A DNA stretch of 64,000 bases from sequence record NC_028927.1; one strand, 5' to 3'. Every line of letters begins with the position of its first letter. The first letter of the stretch is position 1. Under the pieces are notes generated by a model. The model saw only the letters and a program-made list of their open reading frames with translations, was not told where the DNA came from and did not search any database. This DNA comes from Escherichia phage slur02. Positions 22,648 to 55,000 of this stretch are shown in pieces. The position numbers and the translations under genes were made by a program.

Positions 22648-22651
22648 CAAT

Positions 22652-22677
22652 GGGGACCGAAAGGTCCCCATATTTTT
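22652..22677 (+). terminator. terminator after gene 54
   Basis: GGGGACC-GAAA-GGUCCCC hairpin followed by a U-run. Confidence 0.7.
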
Positions 22678-22966
22678 ATTTACGGAATGAAATGAAAGCA
22701 GAAACTGAAGCAACTAAACTGTCTTCAATATAAACTTCAATTTTTACCGGAGCTTCTGACTCAAATTTACCTGTTACTACACCTTGGAAAATGCTTTCAG
22801 TCTGTTCTGGTTTTGAAAAATTTTCAGAAGGAAAAATTCCGAACTTTTTATCTGTTCCAAAAATTTTAATAAATTCATCGTAAACTGCTTCATTAAAAGC
22901 ATTATCAGCAGGAATAACGCCTTCAACTACAAGTTCTTGACCTAAAAAGCGCAAAGAAGATTTCAT
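22676..22966 (-). CDS. hypothetical protein (alt.-3-like position)
   Basis: 96 aa ORF with SD GAGGA and an early-type promoter upstream. Confidence 0.6.
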   Translation of the reverse strand: MKSSLRFLGQELVVEGVIPADNAFNEAVYDEFIKIFGTDKKFGIFPSENFSKPEQTESIFQGVVTGKFESEAPVKIEVYIEDSLVASVSAFISFRK

Positions 22967-22997
22967 TTTGTGTTCCTCATGTTATGTCAGTAAGACT

Positions 22998-23027
22998 ACT
23001 ATAACACAACATGAGGAACTTGTAAAC
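22998..23027 (-). promoter_or_regulatory. early sigma70-type promoter (-35 GTTTAC, 18-nt spacer, extended -10 TGTTATAGT)
   Basis: Read on the minus strand; -35 overlaps the stop of the alt-like paralog; leader carries GAGGA before the ATG at 22966. Confidence 0.5.
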
Positions 23028-25084
23028 TACATTTTGAACTTTTTAGACATTCCGTTAATGTTAACCAAAGAAGCTAAGATTTGAGAAACTTCGTTTTCCT
23101 CTTCTTTTGATTCTTCTACAAGGAATTGATTAAATCCAGCCATTGGACGAACTTCACCAGTTTCCATTAAATGGTCGCCATCATATACTGATTCTTCTAA
23201 TTGTTCAGAAGGAGGAACGATTGTACCTTCGATTAGATACTTGTTATAAGCAGTTTCTTTCATAAAGTACGTACTTACTTTATTAATCTTCAGTAAAATT
23301 CCACGCGGTAGAATAACTTCAGCTTCTGATGGAAATCCTGTTAAATGACCTGGAACGATAACTTTGATTCGCTCAGCTCCTTTAATTACCATACCCACGC
23401 TAGTTTCAGCATTTTCATTAGCGTATGTAGAATGACTACCCATATGCATCAAATCTTCTGCATCAACAGAACCTTCTCCTTCGCCAGAAAATACTGCGCC
23501 GGAATCATCTAGAGCCATATAGTTTTTACCATGCTCACCGAAGATATTTGGTTTAAGCGATGTAGATACGAAGTTCTTGAAATAGAACATTTTGTTTTCA
23601 ATGTTATGACGCAAAGTTTTAAAGGTAACTTCTTGTCCACGATAAAGCGTAGTTCCTGGAGGAAGAACTGAACCTTTAGCGAATGCAGAATCTAACGTCT
23701 CGATGTGCTTAATAGCTCGTTCCATATATTCTTCACGGGTAGAATCTGGTTTACCCAAAAGGAACGAGTTCATTTCAACATATGAATCTGCACAATAATC
23801 TTCAATTACATCAGATTCAGCTTGAGTTAATCCTTTTGGAGTTACTTCAGTACTTGCATATTCATATGCCTGGGCAGCAGATTCATTAATCAATTTATAA
23901 ATGCCATTCATGACAAATTGAATAATAGCTGTCTTTTCATCTGGCGTGGCTTTAGAACCTTTAACCAAATCATTGATAATTTTCTTAATAACATCAAAGC
24001 TATTAGAAATATTAATATCAGCAAGATCACTTAAAATTTTATCAGTTTTATAATCAAAGAATTCTTTATTCTTTAAATATTCTTGAGAACCTTGATATGT
24101 TATATCGCTCTGCAACTTGATGGATGGATCACGTAAACGTGCATGGGCTAATGCAATATGATTTCGGAAGTTTTCTAGTTCATAATCGCTAGATTTAAAA
24201 CGAGAAGCACTCCTCATACCACCGATAGCTCCTTTGCTGAAGTTTGAACCAATCTGAATAACGCCAGAGTTCATTGGTCCTTCTGCTTTATATACCGGAA
24301 CTTTAGATTCAAACTCTTGATATTTCTTGGCAGCGAAGCTATCACCCTGAAGTGAAGCATCAACAGTAGAATATTGAGCTTGTGCTGCTAATCGACGACT
24401 AATTTTAGTTTTCTGAATAACAGCTTGGTCAGTACGTTTATCATTTTCTAAAGCAATAGAAGCAGCAACAGCGACAGCTTTAGGAACAGCATTACCTGTT
24501 TTAACGTCTACATAAACATCACCAACCTTTGATTCAACTTTTGTGAATAACTCAGTTGAAATAGGAGGTACGCCTGGAATGTCTTCTAAATTGGCATTTT
24601 TACGGTAAACCATAATATATGCATACTTTTTATCATAGTCCCAGATTTCCTTTAAAAGAACATATCGACCTGCTCCTTTAGTACGTACTAAACGGTCAGC
24701 AATAACTTGCATTTGACGAGCAGCGCCATTTGTTTTACTCTTTAGTACGCGGAATAGGCATGCGTCGATTTTATACTGCTTCATTGTTTGAAGAGCAGTA
24801 TCAAAAACAGCACTAATGACGCCAATTGGATTTCCACCCAAGTTTCTAAGCTTAACCAGCGATAATTTCTCGTTGACACCTATCATTACGATATGCATCA
24901 TTTTATCGCCCGGCTTAACGTTTTTATTCGTATCACCGCCAGAGGTGTATGTACAAAATCTAAATCCAGGAAGCACGCTTTCTTCGCCGGCTTGAATAGC
25001 AAAAATTTGTGGTATTTTATGCTTAGGATTTAAGTTAACAACCGGCGCCGAAGCGCCGTCAAATAATTCTGTAATAAGTTCCAT
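23027..25084 (-). CDS. Alt-like ADP-ribosyltransferase paralog (685 aa)
   Basis: N-terminal 230 aa closely similar to the adjacent alt ORF; C-terminal half has R / S-T-S / E-x-E ADP-ribosyltransferase motifs (YRGQ, FVSTSL, SEAEVILP). Confidence 0.85.
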   Translation of the reverse strand: MELITELFDGASAPVVNLNPKHKIPQIFAIQAGEESVLPGFRFCTYTSGGDTNKNVKPGDKMMHIVMIGVNEKLSLVKLRNLGGNPIGVISAVFDTALQTMKQYKIDACLFRVLKSKTNGAARQMQVIADRLVRTKGAGRYVLLKEIWDYDKKYAYIMVYRKNANLEDIPGVPPISTELFTKVESKVGDVYVDVKTGNAVPKAVAVAASIALENDKRTDQAVIQKTKISRRLAAQAQYSTVDASLQGDSFAAKKYQEFESKVPVYKAEGPMNSGVIQIGSNFSKGAIGGMRSASRFKSSDYELENFRNHIALAHARLRDPSIKLQSDITYQGSQEYLKNKEFFDYKTDKILSDLADINISNSFDVIKKIINDLVKGSKATPDEKTAIIQFVMNGIYKLINESAAQAYEYASTEVTPKGLTQAESDVIEDYCADSYVEMNSFLLGKPDSTREEYMERAIKHIETLDSAFAKGSVLPPGTTLYRGQEVTFKTLRHNIENKMFYFKNFVSTSLKPNIFGEHGKNYMALDDSGAVFSGEGEGSVDAEDLMHMGSHSTYANENAETSVGMVIKGAERIKVIVPGHLTGFPSEAEVILPRGILLKINKVSTYFMKETAYNKYLIEGTIVPPSEQLEESVYDGDHLMETGEVRPMAGFNQFLVEESKEEENEVSQILASLVNINGMSKKFKM

Positions 25085-25087
25085 GAT

Positions 25088-27184
25088 TTATCCTTGAACG
25101 AACTTGTAAGGCATGTTTGTAATATCTATGCAAGACGCAATAATTCCAAGAGATGATTCTACTTTCTGTTTAACATTTGATGAAACAAATGATGCAAAGT
25201 CAACTCTGTCTTCTACTTCAATATCACCTGTCATTGCAACTACTTCGCCGGTTTCCATTAGATGGTCACCGTCATAAATTACCGATTCGGTGAGTTCTTC
25301 TGTGGTCATAACTTCAGCTTGAATAAGTTTTGTATTATTAGATGTTGTTCCGTCATTATTAGAAGCATCAGTTATTTTATTAACTTTAACCATCAATCCG
25401 CGCGGTAGAATAACTTCAGCTTCTGTTGCTATTCCGAGACTTCCTGGATATACAACATTAACTTTATGAGCTCCATCAATTGCCCATCCTATTTGAACTT
25501 TAACGTATTCAGGATTTTCTTTATACGCTCTTATTTCGTTTGGATTAATAGTTATTCCTTCTTCATTTTTATCAACTGTTAATTCATTGCGAGCTTCTGG
25601 TTCTAAAAGACCAATACCAGCATGTGTAATTCCAAAACGTCCAAAAATGATAGGAGTTAAAGAAGTAGATACAAAATTTCTGAAATAGAACACTTTATTT
25701 TTAACTAGCGCTTCGTATATAGGAGCAGTCATACTTTGAGCACGATAAACTGTAATGCCTTCCGGTATGCGGTCACCATTTTCAAAAGCTGAATCTAAAT
25801 TATTTATAGCAGATTCAATTTCTTTTTCACTCATTACATCATATCGTTCTGGATTGTAACGACCTAAAAGAAGATTATTGATGTCAGTATATCCTGAACC
25901 ACAATACTCTCTAATGCCGCGCTTTTGTGATGGAGTATATTTAGAACCATCACGGGCAATAGTAATATCAATCATTGGACCTGCACCAATTCCAGAAAAA
26001 CTATAAATCATTCTTTTGAGGAATTTAGTTTTTGCTGCGTTCCAGGAATTTTTAGTTATTTCTTCCCAGACTTCATCTGGTTGTCCTTTACGATTTTTAT
26101 TATGATTAGCAAGCCATTTATCTTTATAATCTTCAAAGAATTGATTTACAGCTGCTGCGTATTTCTCTAAACATTTTATTGAAGTAGTTGGTTCATTTTT
26201 AATTGCATTAAAAATTACTTCTTTAATTTTTTCTGAAACTTCACCGACTTGACTCATTGGAAAGAATTTATAATCATAGTGAAGTTCATCTGCCGTTCCT
26301 TCAGCAATAATTTTTGCTGCCTTAGTTTTAGAAGCTAATGAATTAATTCCAAGCTTCATTTCTTCTGCTTCGGGAATTAAAGGAGCGGTAGCAGGTTTAT
26401 TGAAATTAGCTGCGGTAGATTCATACTTCTGGAATAATTCACTTTCAAATCTAGAAGATTCCAATGACTGACTTTGCGCAATTGCTCTACGTGAAATTTT
26501 AACTTTAACGATTACAGCTTGGTCAGAACGTTTATCATTTTCTTGCGCAATAGATGCTGCAATTGCCTCATTTTTAGTTACTTGAGCTCCAGTATCTTTA
26601 TTGATATAAACATCACCGACCTTCGATTCAACTTTAGTAAAGAGCTCGGTACTAATTTCCGGAACCCCTGGAATGTCTTCTAGTGATACATTTTTGCGAT
26701 GTATAAGAATATATGCATACTTTTTATCGTAATCCCAGAGTTCCTTAAGAAGGACGTATCTGCCACCTGAACGACTACGGATAAGTCTATCAGCAATAAC
26801 TTGAATTTGTCGAGCTTGACCAGCGGTTTTAGACTTAAGAATACGGAGCATACAAGCATCAATTTTATATTGACGCATTGTTTGCATTGCAACAGTAAAA
26901 ACTGAATTGATATAATTAATTGGGCTTGGACCAAGACCTTTCAATTTAGCAATTGAACCTTTAGCAGTTAATGTAAAAGGAACAATATGCATCATTTTAT
27001 CGCCCATTTTTAAATCGCGATTAGTATCACCTCCAGATGTATAGGTACATAAACGAAAGCCTGGTTGTTCAATTGCATCATCAACATGAACTGAAAAAAT
27101 TTGTGGTATTTTCTTCTTTGGGTTTAAGTTTGTAATCGGAAGAGTAGTATCTTCGTCAAATAATTCTGTAATGAGTTCCATCAT
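25088..27184 (-). CDS. alt: Alt, capsid-packaged ADP-ribosyltransferase (698 aa)
   Basis: Alt-type N-terminus MELITELFDEDTTLP...; ADP-ribosyltransferase motifs YRAQ, FVSTSL, EAEVILP; adjacent to gene 30 as in T4. Confidence 0.85.
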   Translation of the reverse strand: MMELITELFDEDTTLPITNLNPKKKIPQIFSVHVDDAIEQPGFRLCTYTSGGDTNRDLKMGDKMMHIVPFTLTAKGSIAKLKGLGPSPINYINSVFTVAMQTMRQYKIDACMLRILKSKTAGQARQIQVIADRLIRSRSGGRYVLLKELWDYDKKYAYILIHRKNVSLEDIPGVPEISTELFTKVESKVGDVYINKDTGAQVTKNEAIAASIAQENDKRSDQAVIVKVKISRRAIAQSQSLESSRFESELFQKYESTAANFNKPATAPLIPEAEEMKLGINSLASKTKAAKIIAEGTADELHYDYKFFPMSQVGEVSEKIKEVIFNAIKNEPTTSIKCLEKYAAAVNQFFEDYKDKWLANHNKNRKGQPDEVWEEITKNSWNAAKTKFLKRMIYSFSGIGAGPMIDITIARDGSKYTPSQKRGIREYCGSGYTDINNLLLGRYNPERYDVMSEKEIESAINNLDSAFENGDRIPEGITVYRAQSMTAPIYEALVKNKVFYFRNFVSTSLTPIIFGRFGITHAGIGLLEPEARNELTVDKNEEGITINPNEIRAYKENPEYVKVQIGWAIDGAHKVNVVYPGSLGIATEAEVILPRGLMVKVNKITDASNNDGTTSNNTKLIQAEVMTTEELTESVIYDGDHLMETGEVVAMTGDIEVEDRVDFASFVSSNVKQKVESSLGIIASCIDITNMPYKFVQG

Positions 27185-27215
27185 ATCCTCTCTAGTGTTT
27201 ATTCTATTTATAAAA

Positions 27216-27233
27216 TTAAAGGCCCGAAGGCCT
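27216..27233 (-). terminator. terminator between the small ORF after gene 30 and alt
   Basis: AGGCC-UUCG-GGCCU hairpin followed by a U-rich tract on the minus strand. Confidence 0.5.
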
Positions 27234-27422
27234 TTAATAATCTATTGGTAAGAGAGTACGATATATTTCAAACTTTGGACCTTTTTCATAAGCATCAAAA
27301 GTTTCTGTGAATTTATTATAAGCATATGCATCTATAAATTCAATCATGATTTGTGATACAGAAGTAGAAACATCTCCACCTTCTTTTTGAGCCACGACAA
27401 TTGTTTCTAAGTAAGCTTTCAT
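27234..27422 (-). CDS. hypothetical small protein
   Basis: 62 aa ORF overlapping gene 30 stop; terminator hairpin downstream. Confidence 0.5.
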   Translation of the reverse strand: MKAYLETIVVAQKEGGDVSTSVSQIMIEFIDAYAYNKFTETFDAYEKGPKFEIYRTLLPIDY

Positions 27423-36028: not shown

Positions 36029-36217
36029 AAGTTTTCCACGGTAAAGGCAGTTTAGTTTTCTTTACTGTTAGTTCAACATCGGGATTCTTTTCTCTTAATT
36101 TAAGACATTCCTCCCAAGCTCTGATTTCACTAGTGAAAACACAAAATTGACCATTACTAGTACCAACTAAACCGCTATTTACAATAACAATAGCCCAAGT
36201 TTCATGATGCAAAGCCA

Positions 36218-37967: not shown

Positions 37968-38317
37968 TTAGAAAGGTCCTGGATGTCTTCTACGAACTTG
38001 TTGAAGGAGTTATTGATTTGTTTTTCAACCAATCCTGGCTTATGAGCCACCACATCCGCCTTCTTTGCGTCTTTGCGCAGTTTTTCATTTTCACGCTCAA
38101 TAGCAGCAATTGCCTCACGATTTTTATTATTCATCGCATCAATATAATTATACTGAATTCGCAAATTATTTAATGCTAAAGCGTTTTCATTGGCCGTTTT
38201 TGTAATTTCTACAACAGACGTTTCTAATCTTTCAATTTTGTTTTTTAAAATTAAAGAAGTTCCGCCCAATGCAATTACAATTAATAGCAAGCCTGTTGTC
38301 ATATTACTTAATTGCAT
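37964..38317 (-). CDS. inner-membrane spanin (Rz-like, pseT.3-type)
   Basis: 117 aa; N-terminal transmembrane helix (TTGLLLIVIALGG) then coiled-coil; adjacent to the lipoprotein gene. Confidence 0.7.
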   Translation of the reverse strand: MQLSNMTTGLLLIVIALGGTSLILKNKIERLETSVVEITKTANENALALNNLRIQYNYIDAMNNKNREAIAAIERENEKLRKDAKKADVVAHKPGLVEKQINNSFNKFVEDIQDLSK

Positions 38318-38814
38318 AAAGTTTTAATAACCTCTATAATATCGTCTTGAGAAAGACCATTAATTAAAATATGATGTTCAGCCGGAGATTTAGAAATTTT
38401 AAAGCATGCCTCAACATCTTCTGCCATATCCGATGCGCTACGATTTGGATTACTAATTCCAAGACGATGTTTTCCCGTTAAAGGATTAACGATGATATAG
38501 CATTTACAGCTATTGATATGAACATTAGGTTGAGTCTGATTAATGAACACTTCACAATCATACTTAGCGAGTTGATTTTCTAAAAAGACTTTCATCTCTT
38601 CAACCGCATCAGGAAGCATATCACGGGCTTGCTCAAGACGACGATTTCGATATTCTTTAATGGTCGTTTTCCGCTTGACTTGCTTAGCTAAATCTTTCTT
38701 AAGATCGGTGATATATCCAACTCGACGATTTCCTTTAAATACAGAAATCCCATCTGTAGTATCACCGTATGCTTCAACGACCATTTCAGTAGTAATAAGC
38801 TGCAAATCCATCAT
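38308..38814 (-). CDS. alc: Alc, host transcription unfolding/termination protein
   Basis: 168 aa; position between the spanins and rnlA as in T4. Confidence 0.8.
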   Translation of the reverse strand: MMDLQLITTEMVVEAYGDTTDGISVFKGNRRVGYITDLKKDLAKQVKRKTTIKEYRNRRLEQARDMLPDAVEEMKVFLENQLAKYDCEVFINQTQPNVHINSCKCYIIVNPLTGKHRLGISNPNRSASDMAEDVEACFKISKSPAEHHILINGLSQDDIIEVIKTLCN

Positions 38815-38842
38815 AAAGTCCTCATGTTATGTCAGTAAGATT

Positions 38843-38872
38843 ACTATAACACAACACGAGGGACTTGTAAAC
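38843..38872 (-). promoter_or_regulatory. early sigma70-type promoter upstream of alc, near-identical to the element at 22998-23027
   Basis: GTTTAC, 18 nt, TATAGT; 51 of 54 surrounding bases identical to the other copy. Confidence 0.5.
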
Positions 38873-38875
38873 AGC

Positions 38876-40463
<1,588 letters not shown>

Positions 40464-52010: not shown

Positions 52011-55000
52011 ATGGCCGAGATTAAAAGAAAGTTCAGAGCAGAAGACGGTCTGGACGCAGGTGGTGATAAAATAATCAACGTAGCTTTAGCTGATCGTACC
52101 GTAGGAACTGACGGTGTTAACGTTGATTACTTAATTCAAGAAAACACAGTTCAACAATACGATCCAACTCGTGGATATTTAAAAGATTTTGTAATCATTT
52201 ATGATAACCGCTTTTGGGCTGCTATAAATGATATTCCAAAACCGGCAGGAGCTTTTAATAGCGGACGCTGGAGAGCATTACGTACCGATGCTAACTGGAT
52301 TACGGTTTCATCTGGTTCATATCAATTAAAATCTGGTGAAGCTATTTCAGTTAACACCGCAGCTGGTAATGATATTACATTTACTTTACCATCTACCCCA
52401 ATTGATGGTGATACTATCGTTCTCCAAGATATTGGAGGAAAACCTGGAGTTAACCAAGTTTTAATTGTAGCTCCGGTGCAAAGTATTGTAAACTTTAGAG
52501 GTGAACAGGTACGTTCAGTACTAATGACTCATCCAAAGTCACAGCTAGTTTTAATTTTTAGTAATCGTCTGTGGCAAATGTATGTTGCTGATTATAGCAG
52601 AGAAGCTGTAGTTGTAACACCAGCAAGTCTATATCAGGCGCAATCTAATGATTTTATCGTACGTAGATTTACTTCTGCTGCACCGATAAATATTAAACTT
52701 CCAAGATTTGCTAATCACGGCGATATTATTAATTTCGTCGATTTGGACAAATTAAATCCACTTTATCATACAATTGTTACTACATACGATGAAACTACTT
52801 CAATACAAGAAGATGGAACTCATTCTATTGAAGGCCGTACATCGATTGACGGTTTCTTGATGTTTGATGATAATGAGAAATTGTGGAGATTGTTTGACGG
52901 GGATAGTAAAGCACGTTTACGCATTATAACGACTAATTCTAATATTCGTCCAAACGAAGAAGTTATGGTATTTGGTGCGAATAACGGAACAACTCAAACA
53001 ATTGAGCTTCAGCTTCCAACTAATATTTCTGTTGGTGATACTGTTAAAATTTCCATGAATTACATGAGAAAAGGACAAACAGTTAAAATCAAAGCTGCAG
53101 GTGAAGATAAAATTGCTTCTTCAGTTCAATTGCTGCAATTCCCAAAACGTTCAGAATATCCGCCTGAAGCTGAATGGGTGACTGTTCAAGAATTAGTTTT
53201 TAACGGTGAAACTAATTATGTTCCAGTTTTACAACTTGCTTATATAGAAGATTCTGACGGAAAATACTGGGTTGTACAACAAAACGTTCCAACCGTAGAA
53301 AGAGTTGATTCTTTAAATGATTCTACTAGAGCAAGATTAGGCGTAATTGCTTTAGCTACACAGGCTCAAGCTAACGTCGATTTAGAAAATTCTCCACAAA
53401 AAGAATTAGCAATTACTCCAGAAACATTAGCTAACCGTACTGCTACAGAAACTCGTAGAGGTATCGCAAGAATAGCAACTACTGCTCAAGTGAATCAGAA
53501 CACCACATTCTCTTTTGCTGATGATATTATCATCACTCCTAAAAAGCTGAATGAAAGAACTGCTACAGAAACTCGCAGAGGTGTTGCAGAAATTGCTACT
53601 CAGCAAGAAACAAACGCAGGAACAGATGATACAACCATCATTACTCCTAAAAAGCTTCAAGCTCGTCAAGGTTCTGAATCATTATCTGGTATTGTAACTT
53701 TTGTATCTACTGCAGGTGCTACTCCAGCTTCTAGCCGTGAATTAAATGGTACGAATGTTTATAATAAAAACACTAATAATTTAGTTGTTTCGCCAAAAGC
53801 TTTGGATCAATATAAAGCTACTCCAACGCAACAAGGTGCAGTAATTTTAGCAGTTGAAAGTGAAGTAATTGCTGGACAAAGCCAAGAAGGATGGGCAAAT
53901 GCGGTTGTAACGCCAGAAACGTTACATAAAAAGACATCAACTGATGCAAGAATTGGTTTAATTGAAATTGCTACGCAAAGTGAAGTTAATACAGGAACTG
54001 ATTATACTCGTGCAGTCACTCCTAAAACTTTAAATGACCGTAGAGCAACTGAAAGTTTAAGTGGTATAGCTGAAATTGCTACACAGGTTGAATTCGACGC
54101 AGGCGTCGACGATACTCGTATCTCTACACCATTAAAAATTAAAACCAGATTTAATAGTACTGATCGTACTTCTGTTGTTGCTCTATCTGGATTAGTTGAA
54201 TCAGGAACTCTCTGGGACCATTATACCCTTAATATTCTTGAAGCAAATGAGACACAGCGTGGTACACTTCGTGTAGCTACACAAGTTGAAGCTGCTGCAG
54301 GAACATTAGATAATGTTTTAATAACTCCTAAAAAGCTTTTAGGTACTAAATCTACTGAAGCACAAGAAGGTGTTATTAAAGTTGCAACTCAGTCTGAAAC
54401 TGTGACTGGAACGTCAACAAATACTGCTGTATCTCCAAAAAATTTAAAATGGATTGTGCAGAGTGAACCTACTTGGGCAGCTACTACTGCAATAAGAGGT
54501 TTTGTTAAAACTTCATCTGGTTCAATTACATTCGTTGGTAATGATACAGTCGGTTCTACACAAGATTTAGAACTGTATGAGAAAAATAGCTATGCAGTAT
54601 CACCATATGAATTAAACCGTGTATTAGCAAATTATCTGCCGTTAAAAGCAAAAGCTGTAGATAGTAATTTATTGGATGGTCTAGATTCATCTCAGTTCAT
54701 TCGTAGGGATATTGCACAGACGGTTAATGGTTCACTAACCTTAACCCAACAAACGAATCTGAGTGCCCCTCTTGTATCATCTAGTACTGCTACGTTCGGT
54801 GGATCAGTCACAGCAAATAGTACATTAACTATTTCTAATACTGGTACGTCTTCTTCTCGATTTACATTTGAGAAGGGTCCTGCTTCTGGTAGTAATGCTG
54901 ATTCTGCACTGCATGTTCGTGTATGGGGTAATAAGTACAGCGGCGGTTCTGATGTAACTCGCGCAACGATTATAGAATTCTATGATGCATCCGGCACTCA

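Follow-up and report, generated by a model that had tools for sequence, protein, structure and literature searches.

Two intergenic regions of a T4-like phage genome, separated by 15.8 kb, contain nearly the same promoter and leader, which raises the question whether their resemblance exceeds what is common to early promoters and what kind of control it might confer on the genes that follow. Both regions are part of a stretch of 64,000 nucleotides, here termed the window, which corresponds to the record NC_042130.1 of the Tequatrovirus slur04 at 100% identity, with window positions equalling record positions minus 81,684. A previous inspection of this DNA from its letters, the sequence-only reading, had described a near-identical element at the two loci, which is confirmed in our analysis, where the copies upstream of an alt.-3 homologue (copy A) and of alc (copy B) agree at 51 of 54 positions, a match that did not occur in 100 dinucleotide shuffles. 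The loci had been assigned correctly, but their limits require a correction of 1-5 nt, and the minus strand is the coding one at both sites, carrying the copies as direct repeats (Table 1). The search for additional copies proposed at the time was carried out on the complete slur04 genome (167,298 bp), and it retrieved only A and B, with 0 and 3 mismatches. With up to 24 mismatches allowed, neither the window nor the genome contains a copy beyond these two, and the next-best sites in slur04, at 19-24 mismatches, belong to other early promoters. At both sites, the cassette occupies the entire gap between the adjacent genes and the identity stops exactly at its ends, which are bounded by GTTTACAAG and ACATGAGGA, with the 3' limit defined by the Shine-Dalgarno (SD) sequence GAGGA located 5-8 nt ahead of the ATG. 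On its other side, copy A adjoins a difference in gene content, since in slur04 two Alt-like genes for ADP-ribosyltransferases, both of full length, are arranged in tandem (23027-27181, minus strand), where T4 carries alt and the short remnants alt.-1 and alt.-2.

Table 1. Position of the two cassettes, their elements and neighbouring features in the window, and arms of the predicted helices upstream of alc in other genera.
Feature	Position in window	Strand	Description
Copy A, 54-nt cassette	22974..23027	(-)	between stop (TAG) of second alt paralogue and SD of alt.-3 homologue
Copy A, upstream stop		(-)	TAG overlaps GTTTAC, sharing its G
Copy A, -35 TTTACA	23021..23026	(-)	G at 23027 completes GTTTAC
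Copy A, -10 TATAGT	22998..23003	(-)	TG at 23005-23006; predicted start A 22991, from spacing
Copy A, 5' arm GUUCCUCAUGUUGUGUU	23003..23019	(-)	in promoter spacer, before predicted start; anti-SD CCUC
Copy A, 3' arm GACAUAACAUGAGGAAC	22972..22988	(-)	in leader; SD GAGGA 22974-22978
alt.-3 homologue, gene 3' of copy A	22676..22966	(-)	96 aa, Pfam DUF5498; ATG 22964-22966
Late-promoter motif TATAAATA	27205..27212	(-)	just upstream of first alt gene, ~24 nt before alt ATG
Copy B, 54-nt cassette	38819..38872	(-)	between rnlA stop and alc SD
rnlA stop TAA	38876-38878	(-)	3 nt before GTTTAC of copy B
Copy B, -35 TTTACA	38866..38871	(-)	
Copy B, -10 TATAGT with TGn	38843..38848	(-)	predicted start A 38836, from spacing
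Copy B, hairpin	38816..38866	(-)	5' arm 38848-38866, bulged C 38860
Copy B, 3' arm	38816-38833	(-)	SD GAGGA 38819-38823
alc, gene 3' of copy B	38308..38814	(-)	inhibitor of host transcription, Pfam ALC; ATG 38812-38814
Middle-promoter-like site	40027..40052	(-)	upstream of rnlA; MotA-box-like TGCTT, 15 nt including TGG, then TACTAT
Gelderlandvirus alc			spacer arm UCUCCGUUUAGUU; leader arm AACCAAACGGAGA
Karamvirus alc			spacer arm UCUCCAUUUGGUUGUGU; leader arm ACACUAACCAAAUGGAGA
Moonvirus alc			spacer arm UCUCCAUUUGGUUGUGU; leader arm ACACCAACCAAAUGGAGA
Jiaodavirus alc			spacer arm AUCCUCAUCAG; leader arm CUGAUGAGGAU
Dhakavirus alc			spacer arm UCUCCUCAU; leader arm AUGAGGAGA
Roskildevirus alc			spacer arm UCUCCUCAG; leader arm CUGAGGAGA
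Bragavirus alc			spacer arm AACCUCUCAUUUUUA; leader arm UGAAAAUGAGAGGUU
Winklervirus alc			spacer arm UCCUCAUUUCGUUGUG; leader arm CACUAACGAAAUGAGGA

The properties of an early promoter are reflected in both copies. Their initial description as GTTTAC with an extended -10 element is retained, although the spacer, previously counted as 18 nt, comprises 17 nt at both sites if TTTACA is taken as -35 region, and the -10 is extended by TGn. Judged from this spacing, transcription would start at an A located seven nucleotides past the -10 in either copy, whose equivalent in T4 is contained in ACTGACATAAC or ACTAACATAAC. The leader CTTACTGACATAACATGAGGA is identical in A and B and ends in the SD, as had been recognized from the start, and upstream of the -35 lies coding sequence, whose 3' end is rich in A at either site (AAAAAGTTCAAAATG at site A and AAAAATTATAAAAAATTTATC at site B). 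To relate this resemblance to the early promoters of slur04, 32 strong ones with a downstream open reading frame were located and the 31 with a 17-nt spacer were compared position by position. Over 54 nt, their pairwise identity has a median of 26 and a 95th percentile of 35, with the alt.-3/alc pair ranking highest at 51, followed by other cassette pairs at 46, 45, 45, 43 and 43. The element is thus distinct from a mere early-promoter consensus, which had been named as the finding that would deprive it of any special character. The described T4 consensus (GTTTAC, TGn and -10; Hinton, 2010, PMC2988021) is shared by the copies in 10 of 12 hexamer positions and in TGn, but it accounts for only about half of their identity. 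The alt.-3/alc pair is the tightest case among families of cassettes and no singular occurrence. Three other pairs of early-promoter cassettes, at 36046/150690, 53082/147549 and 37485/151415 of the slur04 record and hence outside of the window, match at 45-46 of 54 positions, with many of these cassettes sharing TGGTACTATACAACTATCAAC and the pair 36046/150690 containing in addition a 15-bp helix between spacer and SD. As a separate observation, the spacers of many early promoters harbour a small palindrome around an AAGGA-like core, such as ACACC AAGGAA GGTGT or CCAC AAGGAC GTGG, which was seen in L114, L116-L119 and at 52743 and 155911 of the slur04 record.

The cassette is moreover predicted to form a hairpin. 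An inverted repeat had previously been noted in the element, and it is indeed present, but it is much longer than described, with a stem of 17 bp at site A, formed by GUUCCUCAUGUUGUGUU and GACAUAACAUGAGGAAC, that is followed by an apical stem of 4 bp. The 5' arm of site B has the sequence CCTCGTGTT, in which one position forms a G.U instead of a Watson-Crick pair. Overall, the hairpin comprises about 21 bp at about -24 to -28 kcal/mol, with calculated energies of -27.9 kcal/mol for site A (z = -5.0) and -27.4 kcal/mol for site B (z = -3.8), neither of which was matched by any of 200 shuffles. The -10 and the predicted start are located in the top of this hairpin, the 5' arm coincides with the spacer between -35 and -10, and the 3' arm encompasses leader and SD. 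Since the 5' arm is contained wholly between -35 and -10, it is missing from transcripts originating at the cassette's own promoter irrespective of their exact start. The consequences for the accessibility of the SD are illustrated by predicted probabilities of it being unpaired, which amount to 0.00-0.03 in RNA reading through from upstream and to 0.76 in the own transcript of alc. In the own transcript of alt.-3 the value is 0.11, and the SD would thus be mostly paired, by a structure of only about -4 kcal/mol; in own transcripts generally, competing structures reach at most about -4 to -5 kcal/mol. Owing to its G.U pairs, the sense strand of Tequatrovirus reaches a lower folding energy than the antisense strand (-24.4 vs -15.4 kcal/mol for alc), and in stems from other genera almost all pairs are Watson-Crick, which favours neither strand. 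A comparison with Rfam revealed no family match, with chance hairpins of up to 24 bits at site A, below gathering scores of 50-140, and nothing at site B.

For such a hairpin to be relevant, RNA that contains both of its arms has to be synthesized. Such read-through is expected at either cassette, since neither site contains a terminator between the upstream gene and the cassette. The late-promoter motif TATAAATA ahead of alt is a likely source of late transcripts entering copy A, and the predicted middle promoter ahead of rnlA is likewise a likely origin of transcripts entering copy B. In the region preceding the first alt gene (27205-27240, minus strand), a GC-rich hairpin GGCCTTCGGGCC with a T-run is directly followed by TATAAATA, an arrangement that appears to shield alt from early transcription upstream and to place it under late control.

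Based on these features, we propose that each copy constitutes an intergenic regulatory cassette of the PeSL (promoter-early stem-loop) type, in which a strong T4-type early promoter is nested in an RNA hairpin. RNA initiated at this promoter would begin between the arms and thus lack the 5' arm, its SD being held at most by weak structure, which would permit translation of alt.-3 or alc right after infection. In contrast, RNA arriving from the alt late promoter, from the middle-promoter-like site that precedes rnlA or from early promoters farther away would contain both arms and fold in the cell into the hairpin of about 21 bp, thereby burying the SD and leaving the downstream gene untranslated, with the untranslated stretch of such RNA potentially exposed to Rho. 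The most likely consequence is that ribosomes can translate the own transcripts but not those reading through, and translation of an immediate-early gene would in this way be tied to its own early promoter despite its position behind a middle or late gene. That the hairpin acts as a gate for the translation of read-through transcripts is the account that we consider probable. It preserves the earlier suggestion of a leader-level control in modified form: the conserved leader constitutes the 3' arm, whose partner is the promoter spacer, and the control would thus act on transcripts from upstream rather than by means of the promoter's own leader.

Both copies recur in other genomes of Tequatrovirus. 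T4 carries the same pair of cassettes with 53 of 54 positions identical. A search in a collection of phages yielded 587 records with a match at 1,084 places in total, and nearly all Tequatrovirus genomes among the matches listed, about 500, carry two copies. In 23 copies from 10 or more genomes, the alc and alt.-3 loci share a single 54-nt consensus, with the divergence between paralogous copies not exceeding that between orthologous ones. The 3' arm and the SD are nearly invariant, and variants in the 5' arm mostly preserve pairing by wobble, for example with C replaced by U opposite G and G replaced by A opposite U. In metagenomic data of IMG/VR, a scan with a 14-mer returned 101 stretches, most of them by chance and about 12 being true T4-like copies, and a search with the Alc protein returned six loci only, all from Tequatrovirus. 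In the phage ime09 (L133, 1904-1957 and 17514-17567), both copies contain a T-to-C change in the -10 (TACAGT and TACAAT). This common change might stem from gene conversion between the loci, and it is the only hint of such a process that was found.

The comparison was extended to the region upstream of alc in 11 further genera. In eight of them, the GTTTACA promoter is kept together with a spacer that is complementary to the SD-bearing leader, although the sequences of the arms differ (Table 1). In a ninth genus, Gualtarvirus, it is the -10 and start region that pairs with the SD and the AUG instead. Mosigvirus shows no pairing between spacer and SD upstream of alc, its hairpin being confined to the spacer, and Gaprivervirus contains an additional open reading frame at this location and no such promoter. 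As the arms of ten cassettes fall out of register in a MAFFT alignment, cognate and non-cognate combinations of spacer and leader were compared by permutation, with cognate duplexes averaging -19.5 kcal/mol compared to -11.1 kcal/mol for non-cognate ones (p = 2e-5). The predicted spacer-SD helix upstream of alc is thus upheld by compensatory change. At alt.-3 the relationship is less uniform: in Kanagawavirus, pairing of -23 to -29 kcal/mol is predicted between the spacer and the AUG with its first codons, and the orthologues of Mosig-, Gapriver-, Marfa- and Moonvirus show no pairing between spacer and SD, containing only hairpins inside the spacer. Together with alc of Mosigvirus, these four genera illustrate that the design is dispensable.

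Complementarity between spacer and leader extends to other genes. In 29 early promoters of slur04 with short leaders, seven, including those of alc, alt.-3 and regB, have a cognate duplex of -14 to -26 kcal/mol on a background with a median of -6.5 kcal/mol (permutation of the cognate mean, p = 5e-5). The early promoter of regB, at about 45251 of the slur04 record, contains the spacer UUUCCUCUUGACUGUGG that is complementary to its own SD leader CAGUUAAGAGGAGAA at -22.4 kcal/mol, and its layout matches that of alc and alt.-3. These relationships lead to a wider proposal, which we advance as plausible but tentative, namely that early promoters of Tevenvirinae commonly carry an anti-Shine-Dalgarno sequence in their spacer, as a consequence of which a gene would be translatable solely from RNA of its own promoter. 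Such promoter-autonomous translation would insulate the cassettes from upstream middle and late transcription, compensatory change would have conserved it at alc in at least 10 genera, and in a T4-like genome about one early promoter in four, that of regB included, would make use of it.

The described features might also be reconciled with other functions, the most serious of which is related to transcription. PeSL cassettes of T4-type phages have been described previously (Arbiol et al., 2010, PMC2839356; Comeau et al., 2014, PMC4122927), and following the view of these authors the stem-loop would act as attenuator or terminator for polymerases arriving from alt or rnlA, with the pairing of the SD being incidental. 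We regard this as unlikely in case of the cassettes studied here, despite the fact that one stem-loop of RB49 lowered the expression of downstream lacZ to the same extent as the rrnB T1 terminator (PMC2839356) and that some GenBank annotations mark a terminator under the cassette. The cited lacZ assay would not separate termination from polarity. Moreover, the hairpins are followed by the tails AACACAAAAUG and CUUUAUGAUGG, neither of which contains a U-tract, and a terminator scan flags neither hairpin while detecting a true terminator 300 nt away. Finally, the 3' arm ends on the SD in all genera and is succeeded by an A-rich stretch, although a terminator would not require an SD. An intrinsic (Rho-independent) terminator is not supported, given the missing U-run and the silence of the scan. 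The hairpin detected by the same scan (22650-22671) is a perfect GC-rich stem of 9 bp (ATGGGGACC GAAA GGTCCCCAT) with T-runs on both strands; it is situated between genes 54 and alt.-3, which converge on it, and resembles a bidirectional terminator.

Slightly less probable still is the view that the similarity is nothing but a relic of recombination, where a cassette had recently been copied and both its hairpin and its identity are without function beyond the promoter. It draws on the exact coincidence of the identity with the limits of the cassette, on the documented recombination of PeSL elements (PMC2839356 and PMC4122927) and on the mosaic distribution of its halves across genera. The latter is illustrated in Mosigvirus, where the ndd.1 promoter of Shf125875 (L007 1484-1543) shares the half of the alt.-3 cassette from -10 to ATG (GAGGAACACAAAATG) with a different spacer, and where the alc leader of NHEP10 (AACACGAGGAG, L114) is complementary to the Tequatrovirus spacer, its own spacer being a self-contained hairpin. 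A copying event is indeed the simplest account for the origin of the shared sequence, and we infer that one cassette was transferred onto the other locus, in either direction, by recombination between its conserved ends GTTTACAAG ... ACATGAGGA. Other genera likewise have both motifs at their alt.-3 orthologues, though with a different spacer. The signs concerning the direction are mixed, as an anti-SD spacer prevails at alc, but GTTTACAAG and AACATGAGGAA at the ends are similar to what is found in orthologues of alt.-3. However, a functionless relic is difficult to reconcile with the retention of both copies in about 500 Tequatrovirus genomes, with a paralogous divergence that does not surpass the orthologous one and a 3' arm that hardly varies, and above all with the complementarity between spacer and SD at alc that has survived a complete turnover of sequence in nine other genera, which neutrality would not predict. 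Both copies would instead now be kept by selection, possibly with occasional gene conversion. The earlier notion of a small recombination-prone repeat is thus appropriate in that it agrees with the PeSL concept and explains the presence of one cassette at two loci, but not as a generator of viable variants. In T4, ligase and gene 31 are essential. A crossover between A and B would delete about 15.8 kb including both genes, and the repeat is therefore no source of viable deletions today.

A role of the hairpin in translational coupling or RNA processing appears even less probable. In such a scenario, the stem of about 21 bp would be opened by ribosomes completing alt or rnlA or by RNase III, and only then would the downstream gene be translated from long transcripts. 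The stop codon of the upstream gene is located 7-9 nt before the 5' arm and the stem is sufficiently long to qualify as candidate substrate of RNase III. Unwinding by a terminating ribosome extends only about 5 nt beyond the stop and does not reach the 5' arm, and the distance between stop and arm varies among genera. The weakest alternative, a DNA-level element such as a cruciform or a palindromic protein site that regulates the early promoter itself, is highly improbable, since, even though the inverted repeat flanks the -10 hexamer on both sides, its loop measures 12-20 nt, two to three stem positions in Tequatrovirus are G.U pairs that become C.A mismatches on the opposite strand, and arms that differ entirely between genera while keeping their complementarity suggest a nucleic-acid structure over a conserved protein site.

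Translational gating by the cassette hairpin is thus the account to which we return. T4 already contains the repeat, which does not constitute a new element; what is added here is the pairing between spacer and SD and its preservation by covariation across genera. If real, such gating would explain why the spacers of T4-type early promoters, which are normally unconstrained, are conserved and co-vary with the leaders, and it offers an alternative view of some PeSL stem-loops as translational insulators instead of terminators. It also provides a testable prediction for two genes of T4, the classic host-shutoff gene alc and alt.-3, whose function is unknown, and it defines a natural part of about 60 bp coupling translation to one promoter that could serve in phage engineering. 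Promoter-autonomous translation, if true, would amount to a general rule that is unstated in the PeSL papers and in the 2010 review on post-transcriptional control in T4, as far as the available portions of these texts are concerned. Our literature search retrieved neither a description of a hairpin at the alc or alt.-3 promoters nor a genome-wide map of T4 transcription starts; since older work on T4 (Liebig and Rueger, 1989; Miller et al., 2003, PMC150520) was outside its scope, the former might have been described earlier.

The relationship to known systems emphasizes both aspects of the cassette. On one hand, it fits the definition of PeSLs (PMC2839356 and PMC4122927). The strong sigma-70-type early promoter, which reads TTTACW N17 TAYWAT in the PST/T4 pair, is found here as TTTACA, 17 nt and TATAGT; the stable stem-loop overlapping the promoter here spans spacer, -10 and leader with the energies given above; and in either case copies recur within a genome, their identity being confined to the cassette, whose halves are mosaic between phages. 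In contrast, the published stem-loops end at or before the start of transcription, whereas the 3' arm described here enters the leader and covers the SD. The function ascribed to PeSLs in the texts consulted is termination or attenuation and recombination, with neither a translational role nor a pairing of the SD being proposed, and the alt.-3/alc pair, by its distance and the essential genes that it flanks, is not a shuffling pair.

On the other hand, the mechanism resembles that of the T4 genes e, soc, 49 and I-TevI, where a hairpin hides the ribosome binding site in long RNA and an internal late promoter gives rise to a translatable transcript (Uzan and Miller, 2010, PMC3014915). In both cases, the SD is buried only in transcripts initiated upstream, and an internal promoter yields RNA lacking the 5' arm, which in our case is predicted in silico. 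The two systems differ in that the promoter is an early sigma-70 promoter in the present case, with the spacer between its -35 and -10 serving as 5' arm, and neither cassette contains a TATAAATA late promoter. Neither alc nor alt.-3 is part of the published list of such genes (PMC3014915). The temporal logic, experimentally established for these genes and predicted for the cassettes, would be reversed, from late-only to early-only, and the gating described here, if real, would thus constitute the early-only counterpart of the late-only translational gates of e, soc, 49 and I-TevI.
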